DNA of 8,882 bases from a virus (Duplodnaviria > Heunggongvirae > Uroviricota > Caudoviricetes). The notes beneath the pieces were generated by a model. It did not search any database and was not told where the DNA came from. It worked only from the letters and a program-made list of their open reading frames with translations. Location of the stretch: the IMG/VR virus record IMGVR_UViG_2534681772_000013. One strand, written 5' to 3'. The position numbers and the translations under genes are program-made. This document shows, in pieces, positions 2,260 through 8,882 of this stretch (positions are counted from its first letter, which is position 1; each line of letters starts with the position of its first letter).

Positions 2260-2570
2260 TTAGCCGGGCTGTGTGCCAGTCTTGCGGGATTTTTGAGAAG
2301 ACGATGTGTTTTCTGGCCCATCAGGGGAGAGAGAGGGACTGATCTGCCCTGCAGCCTCATTTGTTTTTCCCGTCATAAGCCATATAGTGTATTTTTCGAA
2401 ATCCTTAGAATTAATTACGCGATCAACAACGCTTAAACCAACCTCTCTTTTACCGCTCTCATAATTCTTTATAGTTCCGAGATTTATCCCAGTAACATCA
2501 GCAAACTCAGCTTGAGTTAACCCTTCACTTTTCCGTATCTCTTTCAGTTTTTTTCGTACCCACTTGACAT
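2260..2570 (-). pseudogene. C: P2 C-type immunity repressor (XRE-family HTH), interrupted by a 1-nt frameshift in an A7 homopolymer
   Basis: ATG at 2568-2570 reads MSSGYEKN then stops. Shifting by 1 nt at the A7 run (plus T-run 2548-2554) gives MSSGYEKKLKEIRKSEGLTQAEFADVTGINLGTIKNYESGKREVGLSVVDRVINSKDFEKYTIWLMTGKTNEAAGQISPSLSPDGPENTSSSQKSRKTGTQPG (about 103 aa). This has a clear HTH and, from memory, a P2 C-like C-terminal tail. Position and orientation relative to int match P2. Confidence 0.55.
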
Positions 2571-2661
2571 GGTGGTCTCCAGACGACTAAATTAACCCTA
2601 AAAGTCGCCTAGAGACGACTTTTAGCAACAAATAACCACAGACTGAACAGGTTATCACATC
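2571..2661. promoter_or_regulatory. Divergent immunity switch region with operator-like repeats
   Basis: 90-bp intergenic region between divergent genes. Inverted repeat CTAAAAGTCG (2598-2607) / CGACTTTTAG (2616-2625) with an 8-bp spacer; direct repeat AGACGACT at 2581-2588 and 2613-2620. Confidence 0.5.
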
Positions 2662-2954: not shown

Positions 2955-3293
2955 ATGCTGAAGCAACGCCGTAATTTTTTTACCGGAACGGAACGCCACG
3001 CTAACCGTTTCGCTACCAGTGCATCACGTAGTAACTCCCGCTACAGCCTGAGCGAGACACACGCAACACCGGATGGTCACCCCGTAAAACAAATTGGTGA
3101 ACACACTTGGCTGATTGAGAAAGCTGGAATCGTGATCCACAAATGCCCACGCAATCCGTTTACCGGAAACCGCATTTTTGCATTGAGCTGTGGCGACAAT
3201 CAGTTCGGGCAGGATTTCACATTATACGAAGCACTTCGCACGGTTGATCGTCTGCTTCGCGGGCAAAATTTTATTAAACAGGCTGATTTATAA
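2955..3293 (+). CDS. Hypothetical early protein
   Basis: 112-aa ORF with a good SD (GAGGTG 7 nt upstream of the ATG at 2955); same strand and tight spacing with neighbours. No recognisable domain. Confidence 0.5.
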   Translation: MLKQRRNFFTGTERHANRFATSASRSNSRYSLSETHATPDGHPVKQIGEHTWLIEKAGIVIHKCPRNPFTGNRIFALSCGDNQFGQDFTLYEALRTVDRLLRGQNFIKQADL

Positions 3294-3303
3294 CAGGTGC
3301 TTT

Positions 3304-3591
3304 ATGACCAAAGACCATGCACAAGGTGTATTTATCCGTTTTATTGATTTTCGCGGTGAACTGTTATTACGTGCATCCGCTATTGACGGAGTGACTCCGG
3401 CGGGTAAAAACGGAGCCGACGAAGCCACTTACGTTTATCTGAACGGCACGCGACTGCTTGTGGAACTTCCGTACCAGATCGTACGAGAAATCATTAGCGA
3501 AGCTGAAAAGGCACGCCAAGTTAATGGCGATGAACCCTATATCGAAATTATTTGTATGGATTCAGAAGCTGAAATACAGAAAGCAGATTAA
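3304..3591 (+). CDS. Hypothetical early protein
   Basis: ATG at 3304 preceded by AGGTG. Translation MTKDHAQGVFIRFIDFRGELLLRASAIDG... The longer track ORF 3190..3591 overlaps the previous gene and is less likely. Confidence 0.5.
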   Translation: MTKDHAQGVFIRFIDFRGELLLRASAIDGVTPAGKNGADEATYVYLNGTRLLVELPYQIVREIISEAEKARQVNGDEPYIEIICMDSEAEIQKAD

Positions 3592-3603: not shown

Positions 3604-3608
3604 TGGGC
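3604..3608. repeat. IS2 target-site duplication, left copy (TGGGC)
   Basis: The 5-bp TGGGC immediately outside the IS2 end at 3609 is identical to 4940-4944 outside the other end. Confidence 0.8.
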
Positions 3609-3619
3609 TGGATTTGCCC

Positions 3620-4525
3620 CTATATTTCCAGACATCTGTTATCACTTAACCCATTACAAGCCCGCTGCCGCAGATATTCCCGTGGCGAGCGATAACCCAG
3701 CGCACTATGCGGATGCCATTCGTTATAATGCTCGAACGCCTCTGCAAGGTTCTTTGCTGCCGTTAACCCGTCTGGTTTGGGCATGATACTGATGTAGTCA
3801 CGCTTTATCGTTTTCACGAAGCTCTCTGCTATTCCGTTACTCTCCGGACTCCGCACCGCCGTGTTCTTCGGTTCAAGTCCCAACATCCGGGCGAACTGGC
3901 GTGTTTCATTAGCCCGGTAGCATGAACCATTATCCGTCAGCCACTCCACTGGAGACGACGGAAGATCGTTGCCGAAGCGGCGTTCCACCGCTCCCAGCAT
4001 GACGTCCTGTACTGTTTCACTGTTGAAGCCGCCGGTAGTGACCGCCCAGTGCAGTGCCTCACGATCACAGCAGTCCAGCGCGAACGTGACACGCAGTCTC
4101 TCTCCGTTATCACAGCAGAACTCGAACCCGTCAGAGCACCATCGCTGATTGCTTTCTTTCACGGCCACTCTGCCTGTATGTGCCCGTTTCGATGGCGGTA
4201 CAGCAGGTTTTCGCTCAAGCAACAGCGCATTCTGGCGCATGATCCGGTAAACACGTTTGGCATTGATCGCAGGCATACCATCAAGTTCTGCCTGTCTGCG
4301 AAGCAGCGCCCATACCCGACGATAACCATACGTGGGCAGCTCTCCGATAACATGGTGTATACGGAGAAGCACATCCGTATCATCAGTGTGACGACTGCGG
4401 CGGCCATCCATCCAGTCATCGGTTCGTCTGAGAATGACGTGCAACTGCGCACGCGACACCCGGAGACAACGGCTGACTAAGCTTACTCCCCATCCCCGGG
4501 CAATAAGGGCGCGTGCGCTATCCAC
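3620..4525 (-). CDS. insD: IS2 transposase OrfB (DDE integrase domain)
   Basis: 301-aa translation matches IS2 InsD as recalled ([34 protein letters not shown] ... [14 protein letters not shown]). Confidence 0.93.
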
Positions 4526-4848
4526 TTTTTTGCCCGTCCATATTCAACGGCTTCTTTGAGGAGTTCATTTTCCATCGTTTTCTTGCCGAGCAGGCGCTGG
4601 AGTTCTTTAATCTGCTTCATGGCGGCAGCAAGTTCAGAGGCAGGAACAACCTGTTCTCCGGCGGCGACAGCAGTAAGACTTCCTTCCTGGTATTGCTTAC
4701 GCCAGAGAAATAACTGGCTGGCTGCTACACCATGTTGCCGGGCAACGAGGGAGACCGTCATCCCCGGTTCAAAGCTCTGCTGAACAATTGCGATCTTTTC
4801 CTGTGTGGTACGCCGTCTGCGTTTCTCCGGCCCTAAGACATCAATCAT
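4483..4848 (-). CDS. insC: IS2 transposase OrfA (HTH)
   Basis: Translation from the internal ATG at 4846-4848 is [56 protein letters not shown]... (121 aa). The track's longer 136-aa start lies in the IS2 terminal region and is not the native start. Confidence 0.9.
4506..4512 (-). other. IS2 programmed -1 ribosomal frameshift heptamer A-AAA-AAG (produces the InsCD fusion transposase)
   Basis: Minus-strand GCA-AAA-AAG-TGG in the insC frame, located in the insC/insD overlap, as is typical for the IS3 family. Confidence 0.7.
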
Positions 4849-4938
4849 CTGTTCTCCAATGACTAGTCTAAAAACTAGTATTAAGACTATCACTTATTTA
4901 AGTGATACTGGTTGTCTGGAGATTCAGGGGGGCAGTCT

Positions 4939-5181
4939 ATGGGCAAAGAATATAAAACTCTCATTAACAAAGCACTTGAGCGTTTTTATTTTCGCTTAAG
5001 TGCATCAGGCGCTCATGCTGAACGTGCGGCCCGTGACTCATTGACCAGAGCAATCCGAAGTCTGTATGACGTGGCTTTTTACGCTGATGATCTGGATGCA
5101 CTTAACGAACTTTCCGAGCTGATCTGTGCCGCAGAATGCGGGGAACATATTGAACCGTATAAGCTGGGAAATATCGCATGA
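4939..5181 (+). CDS. Hypothetical early protein whose start codon is split by the IS2 insertion
   Basis: ATG-GGC-AAA-GAA... encodes MGKEYKTLINKALERFYFRLSASGAHAERAARDSLTRAIRSLYDVAFYADDLDALNELSELICAAECGEHIEPYKLGNIA (80 aa). The ATG is rebuilt from the terminal A of IS2 plus the TG of the duplication; the original RBS and ATG (3591-3605) are now 1.3 kb upstream. Confidence 0.45.
   Translation: MGKEYKTLINKALERFYFRLSASGAHAERAARDSLTRAIRSLYDVAFYADDLDALNELSELICAAECGEHIEPYKLGNIA
4940..4944. repeat. IS2 target-site duplication, right copy (TGGGC)
   Basis: Identical to 3604-3608. Confidence 0.8.
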
Positions 5182-6290: not shown

Positions 6291-6577
6291 GCACCATCAA
6301 CCACCAGAAGCTACGCGAACTGGCATTTGCCCTGCAACGAATGGCAACGCCTCAAAAATTACTGGCATTTCGCGCAATGCTCTCGCCGTCTGCTGTGCTG
6401 GCACTGCTGAATGAGCTGGAGCACGCCAGAACCACGGCTCCTGCCATTCGCCTGACGCTCCATCATGAAATCGCTGATTTCTGCGCGACGTTGGAGGCGC
6501 CGGGCGAACCGGAAACGCCGGAAGCAATACAGCAAGAGCTGCTGCAACGCATTGACAAGGTTTTTGATTTTTTCTGA
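6287..6577 (+). CDS. Hypothetical protein, possibly Ead/Ea22-like
   Basis: 96-aa ORF with an ATGA start overlap. The motif SPSAVLALLNELEHARTTA resembles the conserved region of Ead/Ea22-like phage proteins as I recall it (weak). Confidence 0.5.
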   Translation: MSTINHQKLRELAFALQRMATPQKLLAFRAMLSPSAVLALLNELEHARTTAPAIRLTLHHEIADFCATLEAPGEPETPEAIQQELLQRIDKVFDFF

Positions 6578-6708
6578 ACCAGTAAGAAACCAGAACATGC
6601 ACACACAAAAAAAACCGCTTGCCATGCCGCAATCAGTCAGGTTACATTTCCGCTGCACCTCATAAAACGGGTGCCGGGATTTCCACCCCGCTGACAACTA
6701 CAGCGCAC

Positions 6709-6729
6709 AACCGCGCCAGCGGTTTTTTT
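6709..6729 (+). terminator. Putative intrinsic terminator within the non-coding gap
   Basis: AACCGC-GCCA-GCGGTT stem-loop followed by a T7 run (6723-6729). Confidence 0.45.
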
Positions 6730-6908
6730 GTGCGTACTGTATCGCCACGTCTTTTTCGCACACGAATTATGGTGGGGCGTACGGGGCCGACTTCGGTCGG
6801 GCCGGGTTCTGTAGTTGCCGGTTGTGGAAACCCTGTACGTCTCACCACCCCGAGTTTTCCACCTCTGGATGGTGAGTTTTCAAAACTTGCAACTACAGAG
6901 GCCACACC

Positions 6909-7139
6909 ATGGCAAACCGCAAACAGCACCGCGCTATCGCGGAGCGTCGTCACATCCAGACTGAAATCAACCGCAGACTTTTCCGCGCATCACGCGTCGC
7001 GCAAATCATGCACATCAATATGCTGCATGAGCGCAGCCACGCACTATCAAACATCTATTCCGCCGCTGTTTTCAGCTATCTGGCGGATGATCTGCACGAG
7101 CTTCAACAGCTCATCCAGCAGCAAAACAAACTCCATTAA
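6909..7139 (+). CDS. Hypothetical small basic protein
   Basis: 76-aa ORF with AGAGG SD 8 nt upstream. Its composition is sensible, unlike the overlapping 198-aa track ORF. Confidence 0.5.
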   Translation: MANRKQHRAIAERRHIQTEINRRLFRASRVAQIMHINMLHERSHALSNIYSAAVFSYLADDLHELQQLIQQQNKLH

Positions 7140-7211
7140 TTCCTGTTCCGGGCCTTTCCTGCACCTTGCGGCGGGAGGCCTTCGCACATCTGTAACAAGA
7201 GGATTGCCGCA

Positions 7212-7577
7212 ATGATTCTCGCCAACGACTTTCTTGAATACCTGCTCAACACAGAACGTGATCTTGCCGCTCGCGTGCGTGAACGTTATGACATGTACCT
7301 GAAATCCCTGCCTGTACCGCAGCTCGCTGACGGAAAGATTGTTATTGATGGTCGCTACATGATTGACAGCCACGAGGGAAATTACAGGCTTTACCGCATT
7401 GAAGGTGGCACCCCGTCCGTTATTGGCATTTACCAGCGCCCATCCTCTTCAATCGTCGATGTGATTGCCGACAGCATCCGCATCACACATCGCCATGCCG
7501 ACACAGAAGACACCGTGCTGGAAATTCAGCGGCTGGCTACAGTCTGCCGCGACACCCTGAATGGCATGACGAAGTAA
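7212..7577 (+). CDS. Hypothetical protein immediately upstream of the replication gene
   Basis: 121-aa ORF with AAGAGGA SD; ends 6 nt before the gpA start. Confidence 0.55.
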   Translation: MILANDFLEYLLNTERDLAARVRERYDMYLKSLPVPQLADGKIVIDGRYMIDSHEGNYRLYRIEGGTPSVIGIYQRPSSSIVDVIADSIRITHRHADTEDTVLEIQRLATVCRDTLNGMTK

Positions 7578-7583
7578 ATCACT

Positions 7584-8882
7584 ATGACGGCAGAGTACAT
7601 CAGGGACTGGCAACAACCGCGCCACGCAGTGGGGCGTGAAGGAACGGGGATCCCCGCTCCTGAATCCGCGCTTTCCTCCTGGCTGGATGCCTACCGGGCA
7701 GAGAACGAGCGCCGCCAGGAAATGGCTGATGCGGCGTTCTCCGCCACGCCGCTGGGCAACCTGATTAATAAAAGCCTGGACGCACAGGAAAAACAGGACA
7801 AAACCATCACACTGGCAGGAGACGCCAGAAAACAGGCACGCGGCGCGGTGGATGAAGCCATGGCCTCGCTGCGCCTGCTGCCGTCCTATCTGCGCGATCC
7901 GCTTATTCGCCACCTCTCCTTCCTTCGCAAAAAACAGGAAGCCGATCGCCGGAAAGGCAAAAAGAGCTGGCAGGCGGAACGCTATGCACGCGGAACCCTG
8001 CGCAAAATATTCGAACGTCTGGATCGCACTGACGGACGCTGGCTGACACCGGGTTATCGCTCCCTTGCCGGACGCGAACGCCTGGACGATTTGCTTTACC
8101 TGCCGCAGCTCAACAAACACCAGATACAGACGCTGGCCACCATGACGGCAGCGATGTTCAGCAGCACCTTCGAAAAACTCTGCGATGGCTTTGGCGCGAC
8201 TGATGGCGAACTGACCATGGATGTATCGCTGAAGGCGTATCAGATGCTGGCCCGCATGGCGTTACACCTGCACGCTATGCCTCCACATTATGACGCACTG
8301 ACAACAGATAAAGACCGGAGGAACGAACCGGACACAGAGCTGCTGCCGGGCGCAATCCTTCGCCTGACCTGTGCGGAATGGTGGAAACGCAAACTGTGGC
8401 TGTTACGTTGCGAGTGGAGAGAAGAACAACTCCGCGCCGCCTGTCTGGTTTCCAGAAAAACATCGCCCTATCTGAGCCAGGACGCGTTAAGCGAGTTTCG
8501 CGCACAGCGCGAGAAAACACGCGATTTCCTGAAAAGTTTCATGCTGGAAAACGAAGACGGGTTCACGATTGATCTCGAGACAGTGTATTACGCGGGAGTA
8601 AGTAACCCGGTTCACCGTAAGGCAGAAATGATGGCCACCATGAAGGGACTGGAACTTCTGGCCGAAGCCCGTGGCGACAGAGCGGTGTTTCTGACTGTCA
8701 CCTGCCCGTCAAAATACCACGCAACAACAGAGAACGGTCATCCGAATCCCAAATGGAACGGGGCCACCATGCGCGACTCCAGCGATTACCTGGTTAACAC
8801 GTTTTTTTGCGGCGGTCCGCAAGAAACTGAACCGCGACGGCCTGCGCTGGTATGGCATCCGCACGGTGGAGCCTCACCATGA
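7584..8882 (+). CDS. A: P2 gpA-family rolling-circle replication initiator, frameshifted at a T7 run and truncated by the window end
   Basis: The 432-aa frame-0 translation ends ...NTFFCGGPQETEPRRPALVWHPHGGASP. After the T-run 8811-8817 the +1 frame reads AAVRKKLNRDGLRWYGIRTVEPHH, which matches the conserved gpA-family motif as I recall it, and stays open to the window end. A T6 run would give one continuous ORF. Confidence 0.8.
   Translation: MTAEYIRDWQQPRHAVGREGTGIPAPESALSSWLDAYRAENERRQEMADAAFSATPLGNLINKSLDAQEKQDKTITLAGDARKQARGAVDEAMASLRLLPSYLRDPLIRHLSFLRKKQEADRRKGKKSWQAERYARGTLRKIFERLDRTDGRWLTPGYRSLAGRERLDDLLYLPQLNKHQIQTLATMTAAMFSSTFEKLCDGFGATDGELTMDVSLKAYQMLARMALHLHAMPPHYDALTTDKDRRNEPDTELLPGAILRLTCAEWWKRKLWLLRCEWREEQLRAACLVSRKTSPYLSQDALSEFRAQREKTRDFLKSFMLENEDGFTIDLETVYYAGVSNPVHRKAEMMATMKGLELLAEARGDRAVFLTVTCPSKYHATTENGHPNPKWNGATMRDSSDYLVNTFFCGGPQETEPRRPALVWHPHGGASP

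Follow-up and report, generated by a model that had tools for sequence, protein, structure and literature searches.

The subject of this analysis is a non-coding gap in an 8,882-nucleotide (nt) stretch of viral DNA (IMG/VR record IMGVR_UViG_2534681772_000013; the whole stretch is called the window hereafter), which extends from the stop codon of a 96-aa open reading frame (ORF) at 6577 to the ATG at 6909. We found that this gap is, with near certainty, an IsrK/C4 cassette, and at a rough probability of 85% we read it as the leader of an RNA immunity cassette of the P4/P1 type carried by a P88-like prophage of the P2 family. A previous, sequence-only reading of the same DNA had proposed either a structured RNA (a small RNA, an attenuator or an antitermination-type element) or a protein-binding site: the first proposal was borne out, as the gap encodes two small RNAs of curated Rfam families, while no support emerged for the second. 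The adjacency, the targets and the mechanism of both RNAs have been established in several phages, and the element is therefore already known. What is added here is the documentation of its P88-type instance, its synteny with the leader and epsilon gene of P4, a series of at least 14 alleles with covariation at three sites, a tandem two-allele cassette, a conserved alternative hairpin, and the inference that the Pfam family Phage_ASH and the 'ash family protein' annotations are translated RNA genes. The papers on P88 and phiSM do not discuss the region.

All features given below lie on the plus strand unless stated otherwise. The whole window was scanned with Rfam models, whose gathering scores are 50 bits for isrK and 45 bits for C4. 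The first RNA, IsrK (RF01394), matches its model from end to end (positions 1-77 of 77) at 6655..6729, with 63.6 bits and an E-value of 3.9e-12. It consists of hairpin 1 (6655-6674), hairpin 2 (6675-6690), which carries a target site named a1 in its loop, a single-stranded linker with a further target site, b1, and an intrinsic terminator. Folding of the single sequence gives this same family structure, at -26.1 kcal/mol and with a z-score of -3.48 against dinucleotide shuffles. Across 15 sequences and 16 pairs, 97.1% of the cells are paired and seven pairs are compensatory, a result equalled by 0/500 shuffles. The terminator (6709..6729), made of a 6-bp stem, a GCCA loop and a U7 tract, forms the 3' end of the isrK model and is conserved with two compensatory pairs. 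It is the terminator-like hairpin pointed out previously, which we recover as AACCGC-GCCA-GCGGTT at 6709-6724 with T7 at 6723-6729, in agreement with a terminator scan.

The second RNA starts 35 nt 3' of IsrK. This C4/CI-type antisense RNA (RF01695, 6765..6852) matches its model over positions 1-87 of 87 with 80.5 bits (E 4.8e-15), which is a higher score than those of the founding members from P1 (68.8) and P4 (74.9). A 17-bp outer stem (6770-6786 with 6831-6847) encloses hairpin 1, with its UUCG loop (6787-6800), and hairpin 2 (6801-6822). The UUCG-type hairpin of the sequence-only reading, GCCGACTTCGGTCGG at 6787-6800, is thus C4 hairpin 1, and the long-range pairing that it had suspected around this hairpin, CGTACGGGG (6778-6786) with CCCTGTACG (6831-6839), is the inner half of the outer stem. 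The minimum free energy (MFE) structure is the family structure, at -45.3 kcal/mol and a z-score of -3.38 against dinucleotide shuffles. All 486 cells of the 27 pairs are paired in the 18 sequences compared and 13 pairs are compensatory; 0/500 shuffles reach this value, and slid controls are at most 47% paired. The hairpins are conserved and covary in relatives, which was the check that had been suggested for them. All the structural features lie where the sequence-only reading had placed them, and they exceed chance by a wide margin. What had been missed was the internal promoter, the antisense target sites, a second, alternative hairpin, and the fact that the element is already catalogued. 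A third Rfam family, c4-a1b1 (RF03163), scores 42-51 bits on the leaders of P4, N15 and P1 but gave no match at E <= 1 in the window, whose leader is better described by the isrK model. A search of the window for tRNA and tmRNA found none.

The cassette is widespread in relatives. The gap is carried at 86-100% identity by all 80 viral contigs that encode the epsilon-like protein whose gene starts at 6909, and in 4/4 loci with more divergent epsilon-like genes isrK lies at -254 and C4 at -144 from the ATG, the same offsets as in the window. Among complete E. coli genomes, 1,149 of 5,426 possess the P88-type module, which occurs at as many as four places in one genome and in two cases on a plasmid; under most of the matches that we sampled, the RefSeq annotation is 'none', sometimes 'ash family protein'. 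The pair of isrK and C4 is also present in eight distant phages (Stx2a phages, cdtI, P14437, mEp460, ST64B, N15, a Yersinia phage and PhiR49_2), usually 5' of a Rha-type anti-repressor.

Directly 5' of isrK, a promoter scan predicts a sigma-70-like promoter at 6619..6648 (-35 TTGCCA, 18-nt spacer, -10 TACATT). Both hexamers are invariant among 35 distinct P88-type sequences, and a -35/-10 pair is found at the same distance 5' of isrK in the eight distant phages and in P4, the match ending 6 nt before the start of the isrK model in the window and in all relatives. From this placement, the transcription start would fall at about 6655, where the isrK match has its first base. The promoters P_LE of P4 and P1c4 of P1 occupy the same position. 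The gap had been described as lying inside an operon: it is indeed within the early region, but with a predicted promoter of its own it is more than spacer. Likewise, the gap had been called GC-rich, which holds only mildly (0.538 against 0.496 for the window, with 0.51 in the genes 5' and 0.56 in the genes 3' of the gap); the C4 segment alone stands out, at 0.625.

The antisense recognition sites are named a and b here, with primes, according to the P1 nomenclature. C4 exposes two recognition elements, b' (CTGTAGTTG, 6809..6817) in the loop of hairpin 2 and a' (GTGGAAA, 6824..6830) in the unpaired stretch that links hairpin 2 to the 3' arm of the outer stem. IsrK contains an exact complement of each: a1 (TTTCCAC, 6680..6686), over 7 nt, in the loop of its hairpin 2, and b1 (CAACTACAG, 6695..6703), over 9 nt, in the single-stranded linker just 5' of the terminator. 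The same two targets recur downstream of C4, where a2 (TTTCCAC, 6856..6862) lies 4 nt 3' of the C4 match and b2 (GCAACTACAGA, 6889..6899) is the exact complement of 6808-6818, i.e. of b' plus its flanks, over 11 nt. In the window a1/b1 are identical to a2/b2. The b2 site covers the first three bases of the Shine-Dalgarno sequence AGAGG (6897-6901), 7 nt before the ATG at 6909. It is also directly 5' of a GAGG in P4 and in seven of the eight distant phages, the exception being the Yersinia phage, where b2 is found just before the ATG and without such a GAGG.

This arrangement is found at the same relative positions in 10 P88-type alleles, in the eight distant phages and in P4, with different sequences. 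In the alignment of P88-type sequences, nearly all variation falls in the six short blocks a1, b1, b', a', a2 and b2, which define 10 alleles in this set; other genomes add four, so that at least 14 alleles of different specificity exist. Three recognition sites 100-190 nt apart have changed in concert, in flanks that are ~90-100% identical. Taking the 11 ungapped alleles, the IsrK targets are 100% paired with C4, with 10/16 pairs changed on both sides and a covariation score of 0.685 (at most 0.167 when slid), and C4 is 98.3% paired with the downstream targets, with 9/16 pairs changed and a score of 0.666 (at most 0.205 when slid). Site by site, a1-a' is paired in 100% of cells across 11 alleles, a1 holding the same position in 19 sources; b1-b' has 6/9 pairs changed on both sides; a2-a' is paired in 100% of cells with 4/7 pairs compensatory; and b2-b' in 97% with 5/9 compensatory. 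Cognate duplexes have a mean energy of about -33 kcal/mol and cross-allele duplexes of about -21.5, the cognate one being the best in 9/10 and 10/10 alleles, where only the difference between the two means is meaningful and not the absolute values, as these include constant flanking bases. Such covarying sites are, on sequence grounds, the signature of specific RNA-RNA recognition, and fit the precedent of P1/P7 heteroimmunity.

We also observed a tandem duplicate of the whole cassette (isrK, C4 and the epsilon-like gene) in E. coli GCA_900448625.1, at locus coordinates 2247-2722 and 3076-3551. The two copies are nearly identical except in the six recognition blocks, so that two specificity alleles stand side by side.

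The leader contains one more hairpin, at 6841..6880, that would be an alternative to the C4 fold: CTCACCA (6841-6847), which belongs to the 3' arm of the C4 outer stem, can pair with TGGTGAG (6870-6876), leaving a2 in the loop and a UUUU tail at 6877-6880. It is predicted in all 19 sources, and compensatory changes in its stem are seen in P14437 (CCACCGC/GCGGTGG), N15 (GCTACCACC/GGTGGTAGC) and P4 (GCTATCGCC/GGCGATAGC). As a stand-alone stable structure we rejected it, its z-score being only -0.8, and what keeps it among the candidates is solely its conservation with compensatory changes. It may represent an attenuator or terminator comparable to t4 of P4, a CI-dependent terminator that was reportedly placed between cI and timm by Briani et al. 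in 2000. The fold of the whole leader (6655-6920) has a z-score of -4.57 against dinucleotide shuffles, and its MFE structure is a closed form, in which a2/b2 and the Shine-Dalgarno sequence are bound in cis by the C4 loop region.

Two U-tailed hairpins in one leader, the intrinsic terminator at 6709-6729 and the alternative hairpin at 6841-6880, could also be explained by an operon-internal terminator or attenuator that acts in cis only, with no stable RNA acting in trans, and covariation is blind to the distinction between cis and trans. We consider this very unlikely. A conserved, dedicated promoter is predicted directly 5' of the leader, and the homologues yield stable processed RNAs (STnc1160 in Salmonella, CI in P4, c4 in P1). 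Moreover, at least 14 alleles in near-identical backgrounds are the pattern expected if self is discriminated from non-self in trans, and one genome has two tandem cassettes of different alleles.

The gap had been said to hold no credible ORF, and this stands, with one caveat. The ORF at 6619-7215 is a marginal match to Pfam Phage_ASH (PF10554; 27.2 bits for a cut-off of 26, residues 9-100, i.e. nt 6643-6918), which we judge to be an artefact. The region might accordingly encode an 'Ash' family protein, its hairpins being incidental. Of 49 related sequences, 48 have no stop in this frame over the 267 nt 5' of the epsilon ATG, an 'ash family protein' is sometimes annotated here in GenBank and RefSeq, and long ORFs are annotated across the region in cdtI, mEp460 and ST64B. 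Nevertheless, this possibility appears to us extremely remote. An open frame is weak evidence, since this GC-rich stretch of RNA genes leaves three of its six frames open. The Ash frame is the only conserved one, and its variable columns are distributed 31/35/35 over codon positions 1/2/3, with no third-position bias and hence no coding signature, as compared with 13/14/22 in the epsilon-like gene; the allelic changes rewrite the 'protein' yet keep the RNA pairing. The TTG with which the ORF starts at 6619 belongs to the -35 hexamer, the intrinsic terminator lies within the ORF, and the well-supported epsilon-like gene is overlapped by it in another frame. ORFs that contain Ash are annotated with inconsistent starts (at locus positions 1141, 1147, 1458, 1600 and 1604), and the conserved N-terminus of Rha proteins (MATIP...) begins at the ATG just after b2. 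In all six other phages tested, the Ash matches fall exactly on isrK, C4 and their targets, and these matches include the historical 'cI gene product' of P4, whose immunity factor is in fact the CI RNA, processed from an untranslated primary transcript (PMC4825925). In the same direction, orf45, the ORF at the corresponding Gifsy-1 locus, is conserved at the nucleotide level and not at the amino-acid level (review, PMC12197685). Phage_ASH and the RefSeq 'ash family protein' thus appear to be translations of RNA genes.

Other frames cross the gap. An ORF on the minus strand (6660-6953), which has no family match, was rejected as a gene together with the Ash frame, on codon-position statistics, inconsistent starts and overlap with the promoter and terminator. 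In cdtI, mEp460 and ST64B we observed that the Rha coding sequence (CDS) is annotated with an N-terminal extension of ~210-220 residues running through both RNAs. An AUG at 6769, in the 5' arm of C4, lies within the invariant AAUUAUGG, at a position that corresponds to the AUGs of Gifsy-1 orf45. It opens a frame of 148 codons in 54 of 56 related sequences, which runs out of frame through the whole epsilon-like gene, shows no coding signature, and ends in a TGA overlapping the ATG of the downstream gene orf121 (ATGA, 7212-7215).

A close counterpart of the leader is that of the satellite phage P4, with which its layout is, as far as the sequences can tell, homologous part for part. In the P4 leader, too, a match to isrK (60.8 bits) is followed by one to C4 (the CI RNA, 74.9 bits), and the region reads P_LE, isrK-like leader (seqA/t1), CI (seqB), seqC, epsilon, orf151, cnr and alpha. 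Its two-part complementarity is that of the window, a1/b1 corresponding to seqA and a2/b2 to seqC at equal offsets; its terminator t1 has the position of the IsrK terminator; and both leaders have the alternative hairpin after CI/C4, followed by an epsilon homologue and then by a replication gene. In P4, the CI RNA is processed from the leader and terminates transcription by pairing with seqA and seqC, and IsrK is described as a structural homologue of the seqA RNA (PMC4825925). There are differences as well. The spacer between IsrK and C4 is 35 nt in the window and ~107 nt in P4, and P4 has ~245 nt, including an ORF of ~65 codons, between CI and epsilon, whereas in the window the epsilon-like ATG comes directly after b2. 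The replication protein is a gene A-type nickase in the window and the alpha primase in P4, and the element is hosted by a full helper-type myovirus in one case and by a satellite in the other. Finally, P4 has no protein repressor, whereas P88-like phages have a P2-type C/Cox switch: intact relatives encode the C repressor and Cox, while the C gene of the window is frameshifted, so that RNA as the sole immunity factor is not what we found here.

In the P1 record the order is promoter, a1, b1, c4, a2, b2, icd and ant, with b2 by the ribosome binding site as in the window, and P1 c4 (68.8 bits) belongs to the same Rfam family as the C4 of the window. The P1 leader is an above-threshold member of c4-a1b1 (RF03163) and reaches only 35.1 bits with isrK (48230-48311; E 1.1e-5, below 50). 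This sub-threshold match suggests a distant homology of IsrK with the P1 a1b1 leader and not two separate inventions. The cargo differs: the icd and ant1/2 genes downstream in P1 are unrelated to the epsilon-like protein, the window lacks the succession of c4, icd and ant1/ant2 that marks the immI region of P1/P7, and there are no matches to the Icd/Ant family among its downstream proteins. In addition, P1 transcribes c4 from two promoters, the upstream one (P2c4) being under a C1 operator. The c4 RNA of P1/P7 (Citron and Schuster, 1990, as cited in PMC2864571) blocks translation of ant and sets heteroimmunity (PMC12197685), and this heteroimmunity by allele-specific recognition parallels the allelic series described above.

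Modules of lambdoid, Stx and N15 phages share isrK and C4 with the window at 67-76% DNA identity and conserve the promoter, the targets and the alternative hairpin. Their downstream genes encode a Rha-domain anti-repressor (PF09669) or, in N15, the ant genes, and IsrK and C4 are separated by 24-26 nt in all of the eight distant phages but PhiR49_2, which has 21 nt, as against 35 nt in the window. N15 is said to have, after the work of Ravin et al. in 1999, a CA RNA together with antA/B/C, a processed C4-type RNA that is the genetically defined immunity factor.

The Gifsy-1 locus, which comprises isrK, orf45/STnc1160, anrP and isrJ (Hershko-Shalev et al., 2016; PMC4825925), uses an IsrK of the same family, a C4-type RNA (STnc1160) processed from read-through of the IsrK terminator (PMC4825925), sequences complementary between IsrK and the downstream RNA, and a downstream anti-repressor gene. 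There, IsrK activates through the translated orf45, which is coupled to anrP, and the output is the toxic antiterminator AntQ. This raises the possibility that the cassette of the window is mainly a positive switch of the same type, in which the read-through mRNA is silent until short IsrK in trans turns on the ORF at AUG 6769, whose translation would be coupled to the downstream genes, free C4 repressor RNA being secondary. In Gifsy-1, the expression of an anrP translational fusion rises more than 100-fold with IsrK, by way of orf45, and the pairings are backed by compensatory mutations. In the window, the MFE structure of the leader is the closed form that sequesters the Shine-Dalgarno sequence, a1/b1 of IsrK, being identical to a2/b2, can compete for the same partner, and the invariant AUG 6769 opens the 148-codon frame that ends at the ATG of orf121. 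However, direct reading of the sequence reveals no evident Shine-Dalgarno before this AUG, its frame has no stop near the epsilon start as orf45 has near anrP, and it bears no coding signature; unlike Gifsy-1, the window has no short ORF ending at the start of the next gene, and its cargo is an epsilon-like protein and a replication nickase. In P4 and P1/P7, besides, the genetically defined immunity factor is the processed C4/CI RNA. We therefore regard a predominantly positive switch as possible but doubtful; it is also compatible with the RNA immunity leader that we favour, in that it describes how the same switch may open.

Downstream of the leader, the gene at 6909..7139 encodes a protein of 76 aa that is a putative anti-repressor of the epsilon-like 'derepression' type (Pfam PF25738 Derepression, E 1.2e-7; phrog_3688, E 2.8e-46), 29% identical to P4 epsilon (E 2e-8). 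It is followed by orf121 (7212-7577; phrog_3237), which has no similarity to P4 orf151 (E 0.23), and by a gene A-type replication endonuclease that starts at 7584 and runs off the window at 8882 (PF05840 Phage_GPA, E 2.5e-83; phrog_91, 'nicking at origin of replication'). The order of orf121 and gene A is the same in P88 and in E. coli TW10590, and both genes are downstream cargo of the transcription unit of the epsilon-like gene.

The cassette probably works in P88-like phages essentially as described elsewhere; the steps that follow are drawn from experiments on P1/P7, P4, N15 and Gifsy-1, the anatomy being computed here. Most transcripts would stop at the IsrK terminator. The c4 and CI RNAs are processed by RNase P, and read-through transcripts in the window would similarly give a stable C4 RNA of ~75 nt, cut by RNase P at the 5' end and trimmed at the 3' end. 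This RNA would pair, in trans or in cis, with a2/b2 of the leader, blocking ribosome access and promoting premature termination, so that neither the lysogen nor a superinfecting phage of the same allele would express the epsilon-like anti-repressor, orf121 and gene A. By pairing with a1/b1 on the nascent RNA, C4 may feed back on termination at the IsrK terminator and thus provide autoregulation, and free IsrK may, as in Gifsy-1, open the switch by titrating C4 as a decoy. Once the block failed, the P2-type C repressor would be inactivated by the epsilon-like protein.

Several points weigh against this scheme. Promoter activity, the 5' and 3' ends of the RNAs and their processing are all things that we infer for this phage, and covariation cannot separate pairing in cis from pairing in trans. 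The sign of IsrK action is disputed among homologues, as pairing of CI with seqA enhances termination in P4, whereas short IsrK activates translation of the read-through mRNA in Gifsy-1 (PMC4825925). Given the P2-type C/Cox switch of P88-like phages, the RNA would be at most a second immunity layer, whereas in P4 it stands alone. The idea that the epsilon-like protein acts against the C repressor of its own phage is extrapolated from the action of P4 epsilon on P2 C. Lastly, because the prophage that hosts it is defective, the cassette may serve no purpose at present in this strain.

This last point depends on the state of the prophage. The window comprises the left end and the early region of a P88-like prophage (genus Xuanwuvirus, P2-like Peduoviridae) adjoining btuC. 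Positions 1-2989 have no match among phage records, for which reason the chromosome of E. coli TW10590 was used as context for the left part. Two lesions make the prophage look defective. An IS2 element is inserted on the minus strand at 3606-4939 (orfA 4483-4893, orfB 3620-4525), within the early operon; it is 99.5% identical to the IS2 in the SfX record and missing from related prophages such as those of TW10590 and P88. The P2-type C repressor gene (2260-2572, minus strand) has a 1-nt deletion near 2547, which breaks the frame after codon 8 (MSSGYEKN*) and reflects either a dead prophage or a sequencing error; the repressor is intact in TW10590, as a helix-turn-helix protein of 103 aa (WP_000094527.1), and the intact relatives P88 and TW10590 encode C and Cox beside int.

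The IS2 insertion in the early operon and the deletion in the C gene could mean that the cassette is an inert relic of a dead prophage in this strain. This seems unlikely to us: 6608-6908 (301 nt) is 100% identical to the viable phage P88, which forms plaques and is inducible by mitomycin, and none of the pairings or target sites has been lost. Should the C repressor be truly inactive, silencing of epsilon and gene A by a functional C4 would even be one reason why the remnant is tolerated. In any case, a relic would concern the current usefulness of the element and not its identity as an RNA immunity leader.

Three further matches to small RNA families were observed outside the cassette. On the minus strand at 1-130 of the window, at the chromosome/prophage junction next to btuC, there is a sub-threshold match to Rfam STnc540 (21.2 bits for a gathering score of 38, E 0.42) with a good terminator hairpin. 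A match to sRNA-Xcc1 (79.6 bits) lies in P14437 (locus 2523-2606) just 3' of the Rha gene, under a CDS named 'antB2', a position that recalls that of isrJ after anrP in Gifsy-1. The Yersinia phage vB_YpM_39 has a match to ryfA (134.6 bits, locus 149-447).

The gap is a textbook antisense-RNA immunity leader, and current understanding of such leaders is not overturned. It is nonetheless routinely missed or mislabelled by database annotation: GenBank and RefSeq leave it blank, or give it a spurious minus-strand ORF, an 'ash family protein' or a fusion to the N-terminus of Rha, and the P88 record annotates nothing here but a 'hypothetical protein' on the minus strand. This concerns a module present in about a fifth of complete E. 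coli genomes, which is relevant to the stability of P2-like and Stx prophages, since the homologous Gifsy-1 locus controls prophage induction. The allelic series also provides ready-made orthogonal RNA-RNA pairs and a clean natural case of three-site co-evolution.

Beyond this, we tentatively propose a broader scenario in four parts, which we would credit with somewhat under an even chance of holding as a whole. P88-like, helper-type phages may use the cassette as a second, RNA-based layer of immunity that gates an epsilon-type anti-repressor and gene A. Diversifying selection for heteroimmunity may have acted on it, in which case the at least 14 mutually non-cognate alleles would be natural orthogonal RNA regulators. 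Tandem two-allele cassettes might then be intermediates in the birth of new specificities. Finally, the immunity-plus-epsilon block of P4 may share ancestry with the cassette of helper phages. How a satellite and helper-type phages acquired regulatory parts in common is hinted at by the synteny with P4 epsilon and, if the proposal is true, the weapon of the satellite against the P2 repressor would derive from the induction module of a helper-type phage itself.

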